A stretch of 5,507 nucleotides of DNA. Origin: a virus. Taxonomy: Duplodnaviria; Heunggongvirae; Uroviricota; Caudoviricetes. The notes under the pieces are model-generated. The model searched no databases, was not told where the DNA came from, and saw nothing but the letters and a program-made list of their open reading frames with translations. Positions 1,282-5,507 of this stretch are shown piece by piece (the first letter of the stretch is position 1; each line of letters opens with the position of its first letter). The DNA is taken from positions 1 through 5,507 of the IMG/VR virus record IMGVR_UViG_3300028485_000059; one strand, 5' to 3'. The position numbers and the translations under genes are program-made.

Positions 1282-2040
1282 ATGAATACTCTTACCAAAG
1301 AATGGTTACAGAACACGATTACCGGAATTGAGTCGATAATAGACGATAAATCGTTTGTATGTAGTGAAATAGAATTCGAAATAGGTCAGGTTAACAACAT
1401 ACTTACCGCATTTAAAATTGCACTGGCATCGCTGGCAGCAGTATCGGATGAACGGGCAGCCTATGAATTATTTATGGAGAAGCGTTTCGGGGAATCTGTA
1501 GATCGCCGCAGGGCAAAAAATGGTGATAGAGAATACATGGCATGGGATATGGCGCTTGGCTGGATTATCTGGTGTCACCGCGCCGCCATGCTTCAGGGAG
1601 GCCAACCTGTAAACCAAACTTACAACTTGCCAGAATTAATCGAAGGCATGGAAGTTTCCATTGATGTTAGCACTTGTGATGCTGATTTAGGTAATCGCTA
1701 TTTCGGCACCGTCACCGAGGCGTTAGAACTTGATACAGCCAAGAATGGTTACATCCTCCTGGTTCAGGACGCAGAGCCTAACTTCGATGTAAATGGCAAC
1801 TCTCCGGGAACTCCGGATAGTTGGATAAGCTGTAGTGATCAAATGCCTGAAAAGGGCCAGAACGTGCTTATTTCGGTGAATTTCGATAGCTCTCTGGTTG
1901 AACCGCTAATATGCTCCGCACGCTATACCGGAAGCACCTTTCGGCGCGGAGATGCAACGATTAAGCCGGGTAATGGTATTGAGCAAGCAACTCACTGGAT
2001 GCCGCTACCGGAACCGCCGCAGGAGGTTAACCGTGGCTAA
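1282..2040 (+). CDS. DUF551 domain phage protein (252 aa; unassigned N-terminal region plus C-terminal DUF551)
   Basis: C-terminus WISCSDQMPEKGQNVLI…ATHWMPLPEPP matches the DUF551 signature as I recall it (W…LPE…THWMPLPEPP). Stop TAA 2038-2040 overlaps the downstream GTG start. Confidence 0.7.
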   Translation: MNTLTKEWLQNTITGIESIIDDKSFVCSEIEFEIGQVNNILTAFKIALASLAAVSDERAAYELFMEKRFGESVDRRRAKNGDREYMAWDMALGWIIWCHRAAMLQGGQPVNQTYNLPELIEGMEVSIDVSTCDADLGNRYFGTVTEALELDTAKNGYILLVQDAEPNFDVNGNSPGTPDSWISCSDQMPEKGQNVLISVNFDSSLVEPLICSARYTGSTFRRGDATIKPGNGIEQATHWMPLPEPPQEVNRG

Positions 2041-2314
2041 CCTGCAACTTGCCGTCAAAGGTGAATACTTCGATGCAATGATTCGCGGAGAGAAAACAGA
2101 AGAGTATCGCCTGTGTAATGACTACTGGAATAAGCGAATTATGTTCCGCGAGTATGACCGCCTGATTATCACAAAGGGATATCCGAAGCGCGACGACTAC
2201 AGCCGCAGAATTGATGTTCCGTATGACGGATATGAAATCAAGACAATCACACATCCACACTTCGGTGATAAACCGGTAAAGGTGTTCGCGATAAAGGTAA
2301 ATATTGATGGCTAA
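2033..2314 (+). CDS. ASCH/DUF3850-like (PUA-fold) domain protein (93 aa)
   Basis: The ORF track begins at 1952, but GTG at 2033 has a perfect AGGAGG Shine-Dalgarno 6 nt upstream and overlaps the previous stop (GTGGCTAA). N-terminal LQLAVKGEYFDAMIRGEKTEEYR resembles the ASCH/DUF3850 pattern (…YF..I..G.KT.E.R). Confidence 0.55.
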   Translation: MANLQLAVKGEYFDAMIRGEKTEEYRLCNDYWNKRIMFREYDRLIITKGYPKRDDYSRRIDVPYDGYEIKTITHPHFGDKPVKVFAIKVNIDG

Positions 2315-2645
2315 ATCAGCAGCAGAGCGCAAATCCGCTCAGAGAGCCAGACAAGCTGAATCCGGTGTACGTAAGCTGGAGATTGTGCTTGATGCTCAGG
2401 AAATTGAAATGCTGGAGCGTAACTGTGCCACGCGTCGCCCCGGGCGTGCGCCTTACGAATTTGGTGAGTATATAGCGTTACTGATCCGCCAGGATGATGT
2501 ACGCGTGCGCGGGCGTATAAAATCGATCAGCAGAAAACGTTGCGGTAAGTGCGGCGAGAGAGTTCCAGTTAATTCATGCCCGTGTAATGGTGACTCGCAA
2601 TGCTGGGTGACTAAAGGCTGGCATGAAACGAAATTAATAGTGTGA
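2307..2645 (+). CDS. hypothetical Cys-rich protein, putative DNA-binding/regulatory (112 aa)
   Basis: ATG 2307 overlaps the upstream stop (ATGGCTAA). C-terminal cysteine cluster CGKCGERVPVNSCPCNGDSQCW (C-x2-C-x9-C-x-C-x5-C) looks like a zinc ribbon. N-terminal RKLEIVLDAQEIEMLERN…YEFGEYIALLIRQ has strand-helix-helix character. Last gene before the terminase leader. Confidence 0.55.
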   Translation: MAKSAAERKSAQRARQAESGVRKLEIVLDAQEIEMLERNCATRRPGRAPYEFGEYIALLIRQDDVRVRGRIKSISRKRCGKCGERVPVNSCPCNGDSQCWVTKGWHETKLIV

Positions 2646-2653
2646 CATGTCAC
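2642..2653. promoter_or_regulatory. 12-bp perfect palindrome GTGACATGTCAC (copy 1), candidate protein-binding site
   Basis: Perfect dyad overlapping the stop codon of the Cys-rich gene. The 14-mer TGTGACATGTCACG recurs exactly at 4905-4918. Confidence 0.5.
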
Positions 2654-2693
2654 GAGTAGATTATGCATGATGAATTTGATGGTTTTGAATACT

Positions 2694-2720
2694 GCCGCCA
2701 ACTATGGCGGCTTTATTTTG
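2694..2720 (+). terminator. rho-independent terminator in the terS leader
   Basis: 7-bp GC-rich stem GCCGCCA / TGGCGGC (2694-2700, 2705-2711) with ACTA loop, followed by TTTATTTT (2712-2719). Confidence 0.65.
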
Positions 2721-2723
2721 CAT

Positions 2724-2754
2724 GGTACTATTACCAAAACGGTAACTATTACCA
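2724..2754. repeat. two tandem dyad-symmetric sites (GGTACTATTACCA / GGTAACTATTACCA) just upstream of terS
   Basis: Exact 10-mer ACTATTACCA at 2727-2736 and 2745-2754 (period 18 bp). Each unit is internally palindromic (GGTA-CTAT-TACC and GGTAA-CTA-TTACC). Confidence 0.5.
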
Positions 2755-2762
2755 CGGTGGTT

Positions 2763-3359
2763 ATGATGCCTGCTGAACCTAAAACCTATAAACGCAAATC
2801 AACGCAATTTAAGCCACTAACAGCAATGCAGGAGGCTTATTGCCAGTCATACATCAAAACGCCTGAAAACCAGACTCAGGCAGCGATTAATGCAGGATTC
2901 TCCCCAAATACAGCGGCAGTTAAAGCCAGTGTAATGATGCGCGATGAACGCATTCAAAAACGGATTGCCGAGTTGATGGAGGAGCGCAACAAACGAATGC
3001 GCGTCAGTGCTGATTACGTTCTCATGCGCCTGGTGGAGATCGACCAGATGGACGTGATCGACATCCTCAGCGACGATGGGAGCCTTAAACCAATCCATGA
3101 GTGGCCGAAAATCTGGCGCACTACGCTTAGCGGCTTTGATCTGTCATCGACCATCATGAACATGAACGAGGATTCGATAGAGACAATCCTCAAAAAAATT
3201 AAATGGCCTGACAAGGTGAAGAACCTCGAACTGATTGGTAAGCACGTCGACGTCAACGCGTTCAAAGAACGCATGGATGTTAATGTGAATGTGACAATCG
3301 CTGATCGCATAGCAGCAGCCAGGAAGCGACTCAAAGAACGTCAGGATGGTAATCAGTGA
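2763..3359 (+). CDS. terS: terminase small subunit (Terminase_2-like)
   Basis: QTQAAINAGFSPNTAAVKASVMMRDERIQKRIAEL matches the helix-turn-helix signature of Terminase_2-type small subunits. Stop overlaps the terL GTG start (GTGA at 3356-3359). Start set at ATG 2763 (ATG 2766 also possible) rather than the track's 2667, because 2667-2762 holds the terminator hairpin and the dyad repeats. Confidence 0.75.
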   Translation: MMPAEPKTYKRKSTQFKPLTAMQEAYCQSYIKTPENQTQAAINAGFSPNTAAVKASVMMRDERIQKRIAELMEERNKRMRVSADYVLMRLVEIDQMDVIDILSDDGSLKPIHEWPKIWRTTLSGFDLSSTIMNMNEDSIETILKKIKWPDKVKNLELIGKHVDVNAFKERMDVNVNVTIADRIAAARKRLKERQDGNQ

Positions 3360-4831
3360 CAGATACAGCGTTATCTCCTGAAGAGCAGTTGATCGAGGAT
3401 ATTGCAGGGTTCACTCACGATCCGCTTGGCTATGCCCTCTATGCGTTCCCGTGGGGGGAAGAGGGGACTGAATTAGCACATGCCACCGGTCCACGTCAGT
3501 GGCAAGCCGATGCGTTCCGAGAGATACGTGATCACCTGCAGAATCCAGAGACGCGCCATCAGCCGCTTATGCTGGCACGCGCTTCGGGGCACGGTATTGG
3601 TAAATCAGCATTCATCTCAATGCTGATCAACTGGGGCATGTCCACTTGCGAGGATTGTAAGGTCGTGGTGACCGCCAACACCGAAAACCAGCTACGAACG
3701 AAGACCTGGCCGGAAATTATCAAGTGGTCGAACCTTGCTATCACGAAAGACTGGTTTACCTGTACCGCTACCGAGATGTACAGCAATGATCCTGGGCACG
3801 ACAAGCGGTGGCGAGCTGACGCAATCCCCTGGTCTGAGCACAACACTGAGGCATTCGCCGGACTACACAACGAGCGTAAACGCATCATCGTGGTATTTGA
3901 TGAAGCGTCGAACATTGCGGATCTGGTGTGGGAAGTTGCCGAGGGTGCGCTAACGGACGAAGACACTGAGATTATCTGGGTGGCGTTCGGAAACCCTACA
4001 CGTAACACCGGGCGTTTTCGCGAATGTTTCCGCAAATATAAACACCGCTGGAAAACTGCGCAGATTGACAGCCGGACGGTGGAAGGCACTAACAAACAGC
4101 AGTTGCAGAAATGGGTTGATGACTACGGGGAAGACAGCGACTTCGTTAAAATCCGTGTGCGCGGCATATTCCCTGATGCATCTGAATTGCAGTTTATCCC
4201 TACCGGACTTACTGACGAGGCAATGAAACGGGTGATAACCGCTGCGCAGGTGGCACATGCTCCGGTGATAATCGGCGTTGACCCGGCATACTCTGGTGTT
4301 GATGACGCTGTGATATACCTGCGGCAGGGGCTGCACAGTAAGGTGCTGTGGACTGGCAACAAGACCACTGACGATCTGATTATGGCGAAGCGTATCGCTG
4401 ACTTTGAAGACCAGTACCAGGCTGACGCAGTGTTCATCGACTTCGGTTACGGAACTGGTCTGAAGTCAATCGGTGACGGCTGGGGGCGTACATGGCAACT
4501 TGTTCCGTTCGGTGGCGCGTCTACTGACCCACAGATGCTCAACAAGCGTGGAGAGATGTTCAACTCATGCAAGACATGGCTGAGGCTGGGCGGCATGCTT
4601 GATGACCAGGAAACAGCGGACGATCTGTCGGCGGCAGAGTACAAAGTTCGAGTGGACGGTAAAATCGTTATCGAACCGAAGGAAGATATCAAAGAACGAC
4701 TTGGGCGTTCTCCTGGTAAAGGCGATGCGCTACTGCTGACGTTTGCGTTCCCTGTGTCGAAGCGTCTGCGAATTCCCGGTCAGCAGAACCAGCAAGGCAA
4801 TGCCATCACAGATTACGATCCCTATGCTTAA
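3356..4831 (+). CDS. terL: terminase large subunit (ATPase plus nuclease), 491 aa
   Basis: Walker A-like ASGHGIGKS, Walker B RIIVVFDEAS, and C-terminal RNase H-like nuclease motif VIIGVDPAYSG…DDAV. Length and position directly after terS fit. GTG start coupled to the terS stop. Confidence 0.9.
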   Translation: MTDTALSPEEQLIEDIAGFTHDPLGYALYAFPWGEEGTELAHATGPRQWQADAFREIRDHLQNPETRHQPLMLARASGHGIGKSAFISMLINWGMSTCEDCKVVVTANTENQLRTKTWPEIIKWSNLAITKDWFTCTATEMYSNDPGHDKRWRADAIPWSEHNTEAFAGLHNERKRIIVVFDEASNIADLVWEVAEGALTDEDTEIIWVAFGNPTRNTGRFRECFRKYKHRWKTAQIDSRTVEGTNKQQLQKWVDDYGEDSDFVKIRVRGIFPDASELQFIPTGLTDEAMKRVITAAQVAHAPVIIGVDPAYSGVDDAVIYLRQGLHSKVLWTGNKTTDDLIMAKRIADFEDQYQADAVFIDFGYGTGLKSIGDGWGRTWQLVPFGGASTDPQMLNKRGEMFNSCKTWLRLGGMLDDQETADDLSAAEYKVRVDGKIVIEPKEDIKERLGRSPGKGDALLLTFAFPVSKRLRIPGQQNQQGNAITDYDPYA

Positions 4832-4870
4832 TCCGCTGGTGGGGATAATGTCGTTGATATCCTCTGGTGA

Positions 4871-4907
4871 GGATAAAACAAAGCCAGCTCATAGGCTGGC
4901 TGTTTGT
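4871..4907. terminator. bidirectional intrinsic terminator between convergent terL and the DUF2829 gene
   Basis: Stem AGCCAGC / GCTGGCT (4882-4888, 4895-4901), loop TCATAG. On the - strand it is followed by UUUGUUUUAU (strong); on the + strand by GUUUGU (weaker). A second hairpin TATCCTC-TGGT-GAGGATA lies at 4858-4875. Confidence 0.6.
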
Positions 4908-4917
4908 GACATGTCAC
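4906..4917. promoter_or_regulatory. 12-bp perfect palindrome GTGACATGTCAC (copy 2)
   Basis: Exact repeat of the 14-mer TGTGACATGTCACG seen at 2641-2654; sits between the bidirectional terminator and the stop of the - strand DUF2829 gene. Confidence 0.5.
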
Positions 4918-4921
4918 GGTG

Positions 4922-5218
4922 TTATTGAATTACAATCCAATCATCAGATAGCAGATCGGTTTGAGATGCCAGCCACGGTACAAAGCAACCGTCAGCAGTT
5001 TTCATCCCAATCCACGGTAGAAGTTTAACGCCAGGTACAAATGTATACTCGTCACCGCATGTAACGTCAAATCGCCAATCGTTCGGAGTGGCCGATTGCG
5101 GTGGCTTAACCAGTTGCAGATACATGCCTTTGCCATTCCATCCGGCACGTGCAATGCGCTTACCATCTTTGAGTGATGACAAAGCAGTGGAGAAAGATAC
5201 TGTTGATGTTTCGCTCAT
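4922..5218 (-). CDS. DUF2829 family protein (Tad2-like; candidate anti-defence protein), 98 aa
   Basis: ATG at 5218 (- strand) with AAGGTGAG Shine-Dalgarno. Motifs ARAGWNGKGMYLQL and KTADGCFVPWLASQTDLLSDDWIVI match the DUF2829 signature as I recall it (GWNGKGM…MKTADG…PWLASQTDMLAEDW). Flanked by intrinsic terminators on both sides and on the opposite strand to the terminase operon. Confidence 0.7.
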   Translation of the reverse strand: MSETSTVSFSTALSSLKDGKRIARAGWNGKGMYLQLVKPPQSATPNDWRFDVTCGDEYTFVPGVKLLPWIGMKTADGCFVPWLASQTDLLSDDWIVIQ

Positions 5219-5229
5219 AATCTCACCTT

Positions 5230-5253
5230 AAAAAAATGCCCGGCGAACCGGGC
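5230..5253 (-). terminator. rho-independent terminator (T2) immediately upstream of the DUF2829 gene
   Basis: On the - strand: GCCCGG-UUCG-CCGGGC (6-bp GC stem, UUCG tetraloop) followed by A + U7, then directly the Shine-Dalgarno of the DUF2829 gene. Confidence 0.7.
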
Positions 5254-5330
5254 GAACTGGAAGCAATGAGTTATGCCTTCCGTTGCTGTACGGGTTTACA
5301 GCATGAAGTCATCGCAATGGCGTCCTGCTG

Positions 5331-5373
5331 TAAAAAGGGCGGTGATAGTCCTTCAAGGGAAACCATCACCGCC
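5331..5373 (-). terminator. rho-independent terminator (T1) downstream of the tRNA gene
   Basis: On the - strand: 9-bp stem GGCGGTGAT / ATCACCGCC (5365-5373 / 5338-5346) around an 18-nt partly paired loop, followed by CUUUUUAC. Lies about 43 nt past the tRNA 3' end. Confidence 0.6.
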
Positions 5374-5416
5374 AAGCACCTGGAACTTCTGGCATCACGG
5401 TCCTTAGGCGTGATTC

Positions 5417-5493
5417 TGGCGTGGCATGCAGGATTCGAACCTGCGACCAACCGCTTAGAAGGCGGTTGCTCTGTCCAGCTGAGCTAATGCCAC
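5417..5493 (-). tRNA. tRNA-Arg (anticodon UCU), 77 nt including encoded CCA
   Basis: Reverse complement folds as a cloverleaf: acceptor GTGGCAT/ATGCCAC (7 bp), D-arm GCTC…GAGC, anticodon stem ACCGC/GCGGT with loop CU-UCU-AA, T-arm GCAGG-TTCGAAT-CCTGC, discriminator G, CCA. T-arm matches enterobacterial argU as recalled, but the acceptor and anticodon stems differ. Confidence 0.85.
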
Positions 5494-5507
5494 AACGCTG
5501 AGAGCAC

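Follow-up and report, generated by a model that had tools for sequence, protein, structure and literature searches.

The 5,507-nucleotide stretch of viral DNA analysed here (the window) carries two copies of an exact 14-mer, TGTGACATGTCACG, at positions 2641-2654 (copy A) and 4905-4918 (copy B). The core of the repeat, GTGACATGTCAC, is a perfect 12 bp dyad. The two palindromes are interpreted as cognate operators of a Cys-rich protein encoded at 2307-2645, with a probability that can be put at about 0.85 from sequence comparison and structure modelling. Cognate binding is the best supported part of the interpretation because gene and site are co-inherited, the spacing of the half-sites is strict, the centre of the dyad is clade-specific and the protein has a predicted ribbon-helix-helix (RHH) fold. 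As an explanation of the whole, operators of this kind combined with a protein roadblock at transcription-unit boundaries are favoured with moderate confidence.

The initial annotation put the chance of such a repeat at a few percent. This is correct for any repeated 14-mer, which arose in 231 of 5000 shuffles of the window (4.6%), but is far too generous for a palindrome: none of the 5000 shuffles produced a repeated 12 bp perfect palindrome. Copies A and B are the sole perfect palindromes of 12 bp in the window, and in a pattern search the observed count was reached in 0 of 200 dinucleotide shuffles. The palindrome repeat is genuine, is not a product of chance and is strongly selected.

The window is a mosaic segment of a Uetakevirus (epsilon15/phiV10-like) prophage. 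Over positions 1-2030 it shares 99% identity with the lambdoid phage mEp460, and positions 2030-5507 are 94-97% identical to Uetakeviruses (such as phiV10, PAS61 and O157 typing phages) and ∼80% identical to Salmonella epsilon15. A mosaic joint lies at ∼2030, with mEp460-like sequence on its left and Uetakevirus-like sequence on its right. Early-right accessory genes come first, followed by the Cys-rich gene, terS, terL, a minus-strand Tad2-like (DUF2829) moron and tRNA-Arg.

Both palindromes are found at gene ends, as had been noted initially. Copy A (core 2642-2653) holds the TGA stop codon (2643-2645) of the Cys-rich gene within its first half-site. This gene (2307-2645, plus strand) encodes 112 amino acids, the proposed palindrome binder, and is a homologue of epsilon15 gp49, phiV10 p55 and N15 gp46. 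An intrinsic-terminator-like hairpin with a T-run follows 40 nt downstream of copy A (2694-2719, plus strand) and closes the early-right operon before terS; its equivalent in epsilon15 carries a terminator annotation. The terS gene (Terminase_2; 2763-3359, plus strand) is read from the ATG at 2763, which corresponds to the epsilon15 start, and a longer open reading frame from 2667 would take in the terminator. It is followed by terL (3356-4831, plus strand).

Between the early terminator and terS, at 2731-2746, lies TTACCAAAACGGTAAC, which resembles the annotated repressor binding sites of epsilon15 (ATTACC-N4-GGTAAT). The epsilon15 repressor operator was considered as an identity for the palindrome itself and rejected: its sequence is a different one, the window has its own such site in TTACCAAAACGGTAAC, and that site belongs to another protein. 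The placement of TTACCAAAACGGTAAC suggests, as far as sequence can, that the prophage repressor controls terS directly.

Copy B (core 4906-4917) has a hairpin (4882-4901) on one side and, on the other, the stop of the DUF2829/Tad2-like moron gene (4922-5218, minus strand), which ends 4 nt from the palindrome. The open reading frame matches the Pfam Tad2-like family (Thoeris anti-defense 2) at 3e-24. The terminator-like hairpin (4901 to 4882) with its T-run (4872-4901 in all) reads well only on the minus strand, where the order is gene stop, palindrome B and terminator. The moron slot beside palindrome B is filled by differing genes in relatives, with the stop always 4-7 nt from B. Upstream on the same strand lies tRNA-Arg(TCT) at 5417-5493, and then a minus-strand terminator-like hairpin at 5238-5253, just upstream of the Tad2-like gene.

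In complete relatives there is a third exact copy (C), 17 kb away, directly after the last gene of the structural operon and adjoining the operon terminator. It is at 19493 in phiV10, 32674 in PAS61, 19517 in epsilon15, 20377 in Tyrion, 19663 in SPN9TCW and 18526 in BUCT711. Among six Uetakeviruses of E. coli, Salmonella, Enterobacter and Klebsiella, the 12 bp core shows 100% identity at all three sites, against 37-77% (without gaps) for the 30 bp flanks. On the transcribed strand, each of the three copies displays the succession gene end, palindrome, intrinsic terminator; the gap between palindrome and terminator is 40 nt at A (plus strand), 4 nt at B (minus strand) and 1-10 nt at C (plus strand).

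A search for the motif at equivalent boundaries of related prophages had been proposed in the initial annotation, and there the motif proves to be positionally conserved. Of 78 close Uetakevirus loci, ∼77 have an exact site A that overlaps or abuts the stop of the homologous gene, and the site is also exact in epsilon15, Tyrion, SPN9TCW and BUCT711. Site B, among loci that share the terL end, is exact in 49, has one mismatch in five and is absent or moved in four. It is exact in phiV10, PAS61, epsilon15, Tyrion and SPN9TCW; BUCT711 is without it and has copies within structural genes.

The initial annotation also saw the two copies as bracketing the terminase module. This bracketing is incidental, since a third copy lies 17 kb off, site B is absent or moved in some relatives, and gene and site are paired well away from the terminase genes in N15-like, P2/186-like, Mu-like, ZF40 and AH07 phages. 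A pac or cos site was rejected on similar grounds: N15, a cos phage, has the pair as well, and so do P2-like and Mu-like phages, at a distance from terminase. The suggestion of a module boundary is upheld by mosaic joints immediately beside the palindromes, directly after copy A and directly after copy B, and is secondary to the linkage with the gene.

Several features of individual Uetakeviruses were noted. The phiV10 record (L001, NC_007804.2) begins inside copy A because it was linearised after the last stop codon, and the copy is split between the record ends with one mismatch (GTGACATGTTAC). In SPN1S-type phages (L147; SPN9TCW 38401-38661) the basic N-terminal helix of the protein is replaced and all three exact sites are kept. 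SPN9TCW has an additional near-site where Rz ends (26725).

Sequence comparison beyond the Uetakeviruses shows that a generalised motif, YGTGAC-N2-GTCACR, travels with the Cys-rich gene. Homologues of this gene are present in very different phages (podo-, sipho- and myoviruses), and in several lineages GTGAC-N2-GTCAC is at the end of the homologous gene, usually with the TGA stop inside the first half-site. The myoviruses ZF40 and Pantoea AH07 have the site at the gene end. In N15, 49 N15-like contigs and three Vibrio contigs, it overlaps or abuts the stop in 52/52, and in 186/P2-like Yersinia-type prophages this is so in 47 of 51, truncated genes making up three of the four exceptions. The site is also at the stop in KpLi5, Vibrio 10N (Vib10N), Pseudomonas PARCL1pr and Aeromonas AhyVDH1, the last two with one mismatch, and in the P0271 and P0313 clades. 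The Mu-like clade P0204 has it 38 nt upstream of the stop, within an extended open reading frame and read as S-V-T-G-H. Stop-codon overlap is retained down to 28-35% protein identity.

The association loosens at the edges of the family. The site is displaced in VibK233 and Aeromonas 14AhydR10PP, and no GTGAC-N2-GTCAC dyad was found near the gene in some distant members (at the stop in P0220 and P0302; P0240). In the distant clade L325 (4630-4706), three GTGAC-N1-GTCAC dyads, with a spacer of 1, surround a TTGACA promoter upstream of the operon that contains the family gene; judged by its sequence, this is a classical operator layout. An Aeromonas query against the collection of related loci returned no viral loci.

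Most 186/P2-like loci have the gene-linked copy alone within 10 kb on either side, so that a gene with a single site in its stop codon makes up the minimal unit. The ancestral unit probably had this same composition, a gene and one site containing its own stop codon. Partial loci scanned with the 14-mer yielded 19 gene-linked copies, five with the gene elsewhere in the locus and 58 without the gene in the retrieved part. Many of these 58 are evidently the third site, at the end of the late operon, with the gene more than 10 kb away.

Additional dyads are present in some lineages. N15-like plasmid prophages (L007; N15 33237 and 28550) have two further conserved dyads, one within repA and one lying downstream of gene 33. 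That of repA is exact in relatives whose family protein has just 76-80% identity to N15 gp46. In a marine phage contig, a second dyad, GTGACCCGTCAC (L330, 2988-2999), is found 28 nt upstream of terS and 2.6 kb from the gene-linked copy.

As a rule, the Cys-rich gene is the last or nearly the last of an early operon, and copies B and C are found where convergent transcription units meet, beside terminators. What lies downstream of the site varies: in the window and in epsilon15 there is a terminator, a repressor-operator-like site and terS, and elsewhere the ribosome-binding site of another gene (N15 gp47, L017) or xis (AH07). In L093, L094 and L148 (BUCT711), LexA-box promoters are located directly downstream of the gene-linked palindrome, 6-7 nt away, and that of BUCT711 drives a UmuD-like gene. 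In L008, a Yersinia phage, a LexA-box promoter ∼75 nt after the site precedes a small gene, gp14, of no known function. The unit with terS, the LexA-box promoters 6-7 nt away and xis are regulated independently of the Cys-rich gene, which fits a boundary role of the site.

The spacing of the half-sites is strict. In 2.73 Mb of related loci there are 274 dyads with a spacer of 2, and none with a spacer of 0, 1, 3 or 4; in the flanks of these dyads, Y is favoured at -1, and at +12 it is R. One to three copies of the dyad are present in complete genomes with the gene, against ∼0.04 expected. The central dinucleotide differs by clade, being AT in Uetakeviruses, TG in N15-like phages, GC in 186-like phages and AG, GG or CC in Vibrio and marine phages; Aeromonas-type clades carry the variant GTGACCGGACAC. 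For searches of phage genomes the dyad takes the form YGTGACNNGTCACR. None of the papers in the library searched gives a 12-mer variant in connection with a phage.

The Cys-rich protein matches PHROG 536, and its gene is labelled as a transcriptional regulator in RefSeq and PHROGs, with nothing more. Searches of Pfam and NCBIfam gave no family match for it, and four homologues from other phages were likewise without a Pfam match above threshold. The family is small, with 197 clusters at 50% identity among 1.84 billion representatives. Two arginines in a basic N-terminal stretch are conserved, as are R43, Y50 and E54. Of the cysteines, C79 and C82 are invariant, C99 is present in at least 90% of sequences, and the fourth is near position 91-93; the second cysteine pair is not CxxC.

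An AlphaFold2 model from a diverse alignment of 61 sequences is confident, with a pLDDT of 91.2; a shallow alignment scored 65.7. From the N-terminus, the model runs through a helix (5-19), an extended segment (20-29), two more helices (30-42 and 52-75), the zinc knuckle and a further helix (100-108). The predicted fold is a dimeric RHH (beta-alpha-alpha) DNA-binding domain with a Cys4 zinc knuckle. The PHROG 536 protein is an uncharacterised phage protein of predicted RHH-zinc type, of a family with 110-130 amino acids. In Foldseek searches of PDB and BFVD, the informative matches were limited to one RHH protein and a fragment from the same family. A lead on expression of N15-type gp46 in lysogens was false, the "gp46" of NAR688 being the cB repressor.

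The initial annotation had named this protein as a possible binder, and the guess is probably right. The protein is by far the best candidate, given the linkage of the site to its stop codon in many lineages and the predicted dimeric RHH fold; binding as such is a prediction. Points against it are the distant members with no such dyad near the gene, the displaced sites of VibK233 and Aeromonas 14AhydR10PP, and the SPN1S-type phages, which keep every site although their protein lacks the basic N-terminal helix. A dimer would bind each 12-14 bp dyad YGTGAC-N2-GTCACR, with the conserved GTGAC half-sites read by the conserved basic residues and the clade-variable central dinucleotide read by a clade-variable beta-ribbon.

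A more tentative proposal, drawn from the positions of the sites and somewhat doubtful when taken by itself, is that the protein, once bound, serves as a roadblock or insulator to transcription from either direction at the ends of transcription units. At copy A, RNA polymerase from the early operon would be halted before the next, separately controlled unit, which in the window consists of the terminator, the repressor-operator-like site and terS. Polymerase would also be stalled there just before the protein's own stop codon, and completion of its own mRNA would be limited. At copies B and C, the protein would keep convergent units apart and reinforce the intrinsic terminators beside them. 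The roadblock proposal is weakened by conserved copies in coding regions (N15 repA, a cII-like gene of ZF40, structural genes of BUCT711) and by the L330 copy 28 nt before terS, and the adjacency of terminators possibly reflects only the intergenic space at gene ends. Furthermore, in N15, L017 and AH07 the next cistron begins ∼10-20 nt past the site, and a tight roadblock would therefore silence it.

The zinc knuckle offers a possible, weakly indicated contact with RNA polymerase. When the family profile was compared with PDB sequences, TraR and YbiI, which have DksA/TraR-type zinc fingers, came out on top, with non-significant E values of 0.01-0.04. The alignment covers the long helix and the zinc knuckle (hhalign probability 48%, P 1.8e-4), and the DksA/TraR zinc-finger family gave no Pfam match even at E values up to 10. 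The common pattern is a long helix, C-x2-C-G-x2-[IL]-P ... G-x3-C and a short helix. The phage protein differs in its second cysteine pair, the acidic tip residues are not evident in it, and TraR and DksA do not bind DNA. A speculative and on balance unlikely reading is a new type of boundary factor in phage transcription: an RHH dimer on a matS-like dyad, at the end of its own gene and at other operon ends, whose TraR/DksA-like zinc module would engage oncoming RNA polymerase at the secondary-channel face, as a protein-based bidirectional terminator or insulator, or alternatively a phage analogue of MatP that organises phage DNA. Such a terminator could act on polymerases that ignore intrinsic terminators.

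The likeness to matS merits comparison in its own right. The published matS sequence is GTGAC[AG]N[TC]GTCAC, with the E. coli consensus GTGACATTGTCAC, and prophages avoid true matS (PMC3603311, PMC8669397 for the sequence; PMC3603311 for avoidance). The phage palindrome equals the E. coli consensus minus one central base and has a spacer of 2, not 3. The 13 bp matS, and any dyad with a spacer of 3, were not found in the 2.73 Mb of phage loci, in agreement with the reported avoidance (PMC3603311). MatP homology is not detectable: hhalign gave a probability of 0.3%, and the family profile did not match MatP. The likeness therefore lies in the working mode, an RHH protein on a GTGAC/GTCAC dyad, and not in the family. 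MatP has a four-helix bundle and a C-terminal coiled coil where the phage protein has a zinc knuckle, and the phage system is phage-borne, has one site tied to the stop codon of the gene and is also found in a Pseudomonas phage.

An organiser that works as MatP does on matS, with DNA bridged or positioned or SMC excluded through a few dispersed sites and with no direct role in transcription, is improbable. The single gene-linked copy of most 186/P2-like loci means that bridging cannot be the universal function, and the missing MatP homology, with a zinc knuckle in place of the coiled coil, speaks against it as well. The layout of regulator gene, own DNA site and terminator upstream of late genes is shared with lambda Q and favours cis action. 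Copy A could be viewed as a site like the Q-binding element inside a late promoter, with GTGACA as the -35 element and the protein as the late antiterminator or activator for terS. The early genes do end with the Cys-rich gene, next to terS, a promoter-like match (GTGACA-18 nt-CATGAT, 2642-2671) is followed by the terminator at 2694, and epsilon15 has GTGACA-17 nt-TAAATT and then a terminator. However, promoter-like matches are no commoner in the window than in shuffles, conservation is missing 3′ of the palindrome and the promoter geometry varies among relatives. Copies B and C are without a -10 element, and extra sites are at operon ends. ZF40, AH07, N15 and KpLi5 have separate Q-like antiterminator genes of their own, with the gene-plus-site pair far from the late genes. 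Since the window protein and the four homologues are without Pfam matches, no Q or antiterminator family is indicated, and a late-promoter element of the Q type is very improbable.

Equally poor odds attach to a pure module-boundary or recombination sequence, in which the palindromes would be kept as short homology anchors and no dedicated protein would be involved. The mosaic joints immediately after A and B are in its favour, together with the varied morons at B whose stops are 4-7 nt off, but such boundary behaviour is expected of any conserved island between variable genes. Short homology anchors leave the strict 2 bp spacing, the perfect dyad, the stop overlap down to 28-35% identity and the clade-specific centres unexplained. 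An RNA-level element is the least credible of the alternatives; here a hairpin in the transcript would influence its termination or processing, or translation of the cistron that follows. The site is transcribed at gene ends, often just before the next ribosome-binding site or a terminator hairpin; yet the hairpin would have a stem of 4 bp, a loop of 4 nt and a stability of -1.2 to -2.8 kcal/mol. What is conserved is a DNA dyad, with exact half-sites on both strands, including coding copies in either orientation, and compensatory changes that preserve pairing at the cost of sequence were not seen.

Among known protein-DNA systems, RHH repressors and antitoxins (Arc, Mnt, CopG, MetJ, ParD, MazE, TacA) share the predicted beta-alpha-alpha fold, and the phage protein would resemble them as a dimeric binder on a short dyad. 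The dyads of the distant clade flank a promoter as classical operators do, whereas in the window and most clades the gene has the site at its 3′ end and not at a promoter. Features that set the phage protein apart are an extra N-terminal helix of basic character and a Cys4 zinc module at the C-terminus. Gene and palindrome probably represent an undescribed instance of an RHH regulator with a dyad operator, one with a stop-codon site, with matS half-sites around a spacer one base shorter, and with a spread over many phage lineages.

Two familiar bacterial sites were also considered for the palindrome and rejected. The CRP consensus is TGTGA-N6-TCACA, and the spacing in the window is TGTGA-N4-TCAC, not N6. 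A LexA site does not agree in spacing or sequence.

The proposed unit, an RHH-zinc protein of 110-130 amino acids and a 12 bp dyad in its own stop codon, is compact, widespread and unstudied. It is common to N15-like plasmid prophages and to 186/P2-like, Mu-like and Uetakevirus phages of enterobacteria, Vibrio and Aeromonas. A gene labelled only as a transcriptional regulator gains a concrete binding hypothesis, and the unit might be a means of insulating transcription units in mosaic phage genomes. In annotation of such phage genomes, the motif can serve as a marker of module joints and of the ends of operons. That the site differs from matS by one base prompts the questions of whether phage sites are kept off MatP on purpose and of how RHH proteins set the spacing of half-sites.

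High-GC phage contigs display dense arrays of GTGAC/GTCAC half-sites in apparent coding sequence (L167, 10760-10860; L215, 1890-1960; L186, 755-800; L196, 3140-3185). These arrays may be origin iterons or sites of a related protein. Just upstream of those in L215 and L186 there is a basic stretch of the ERKR type.
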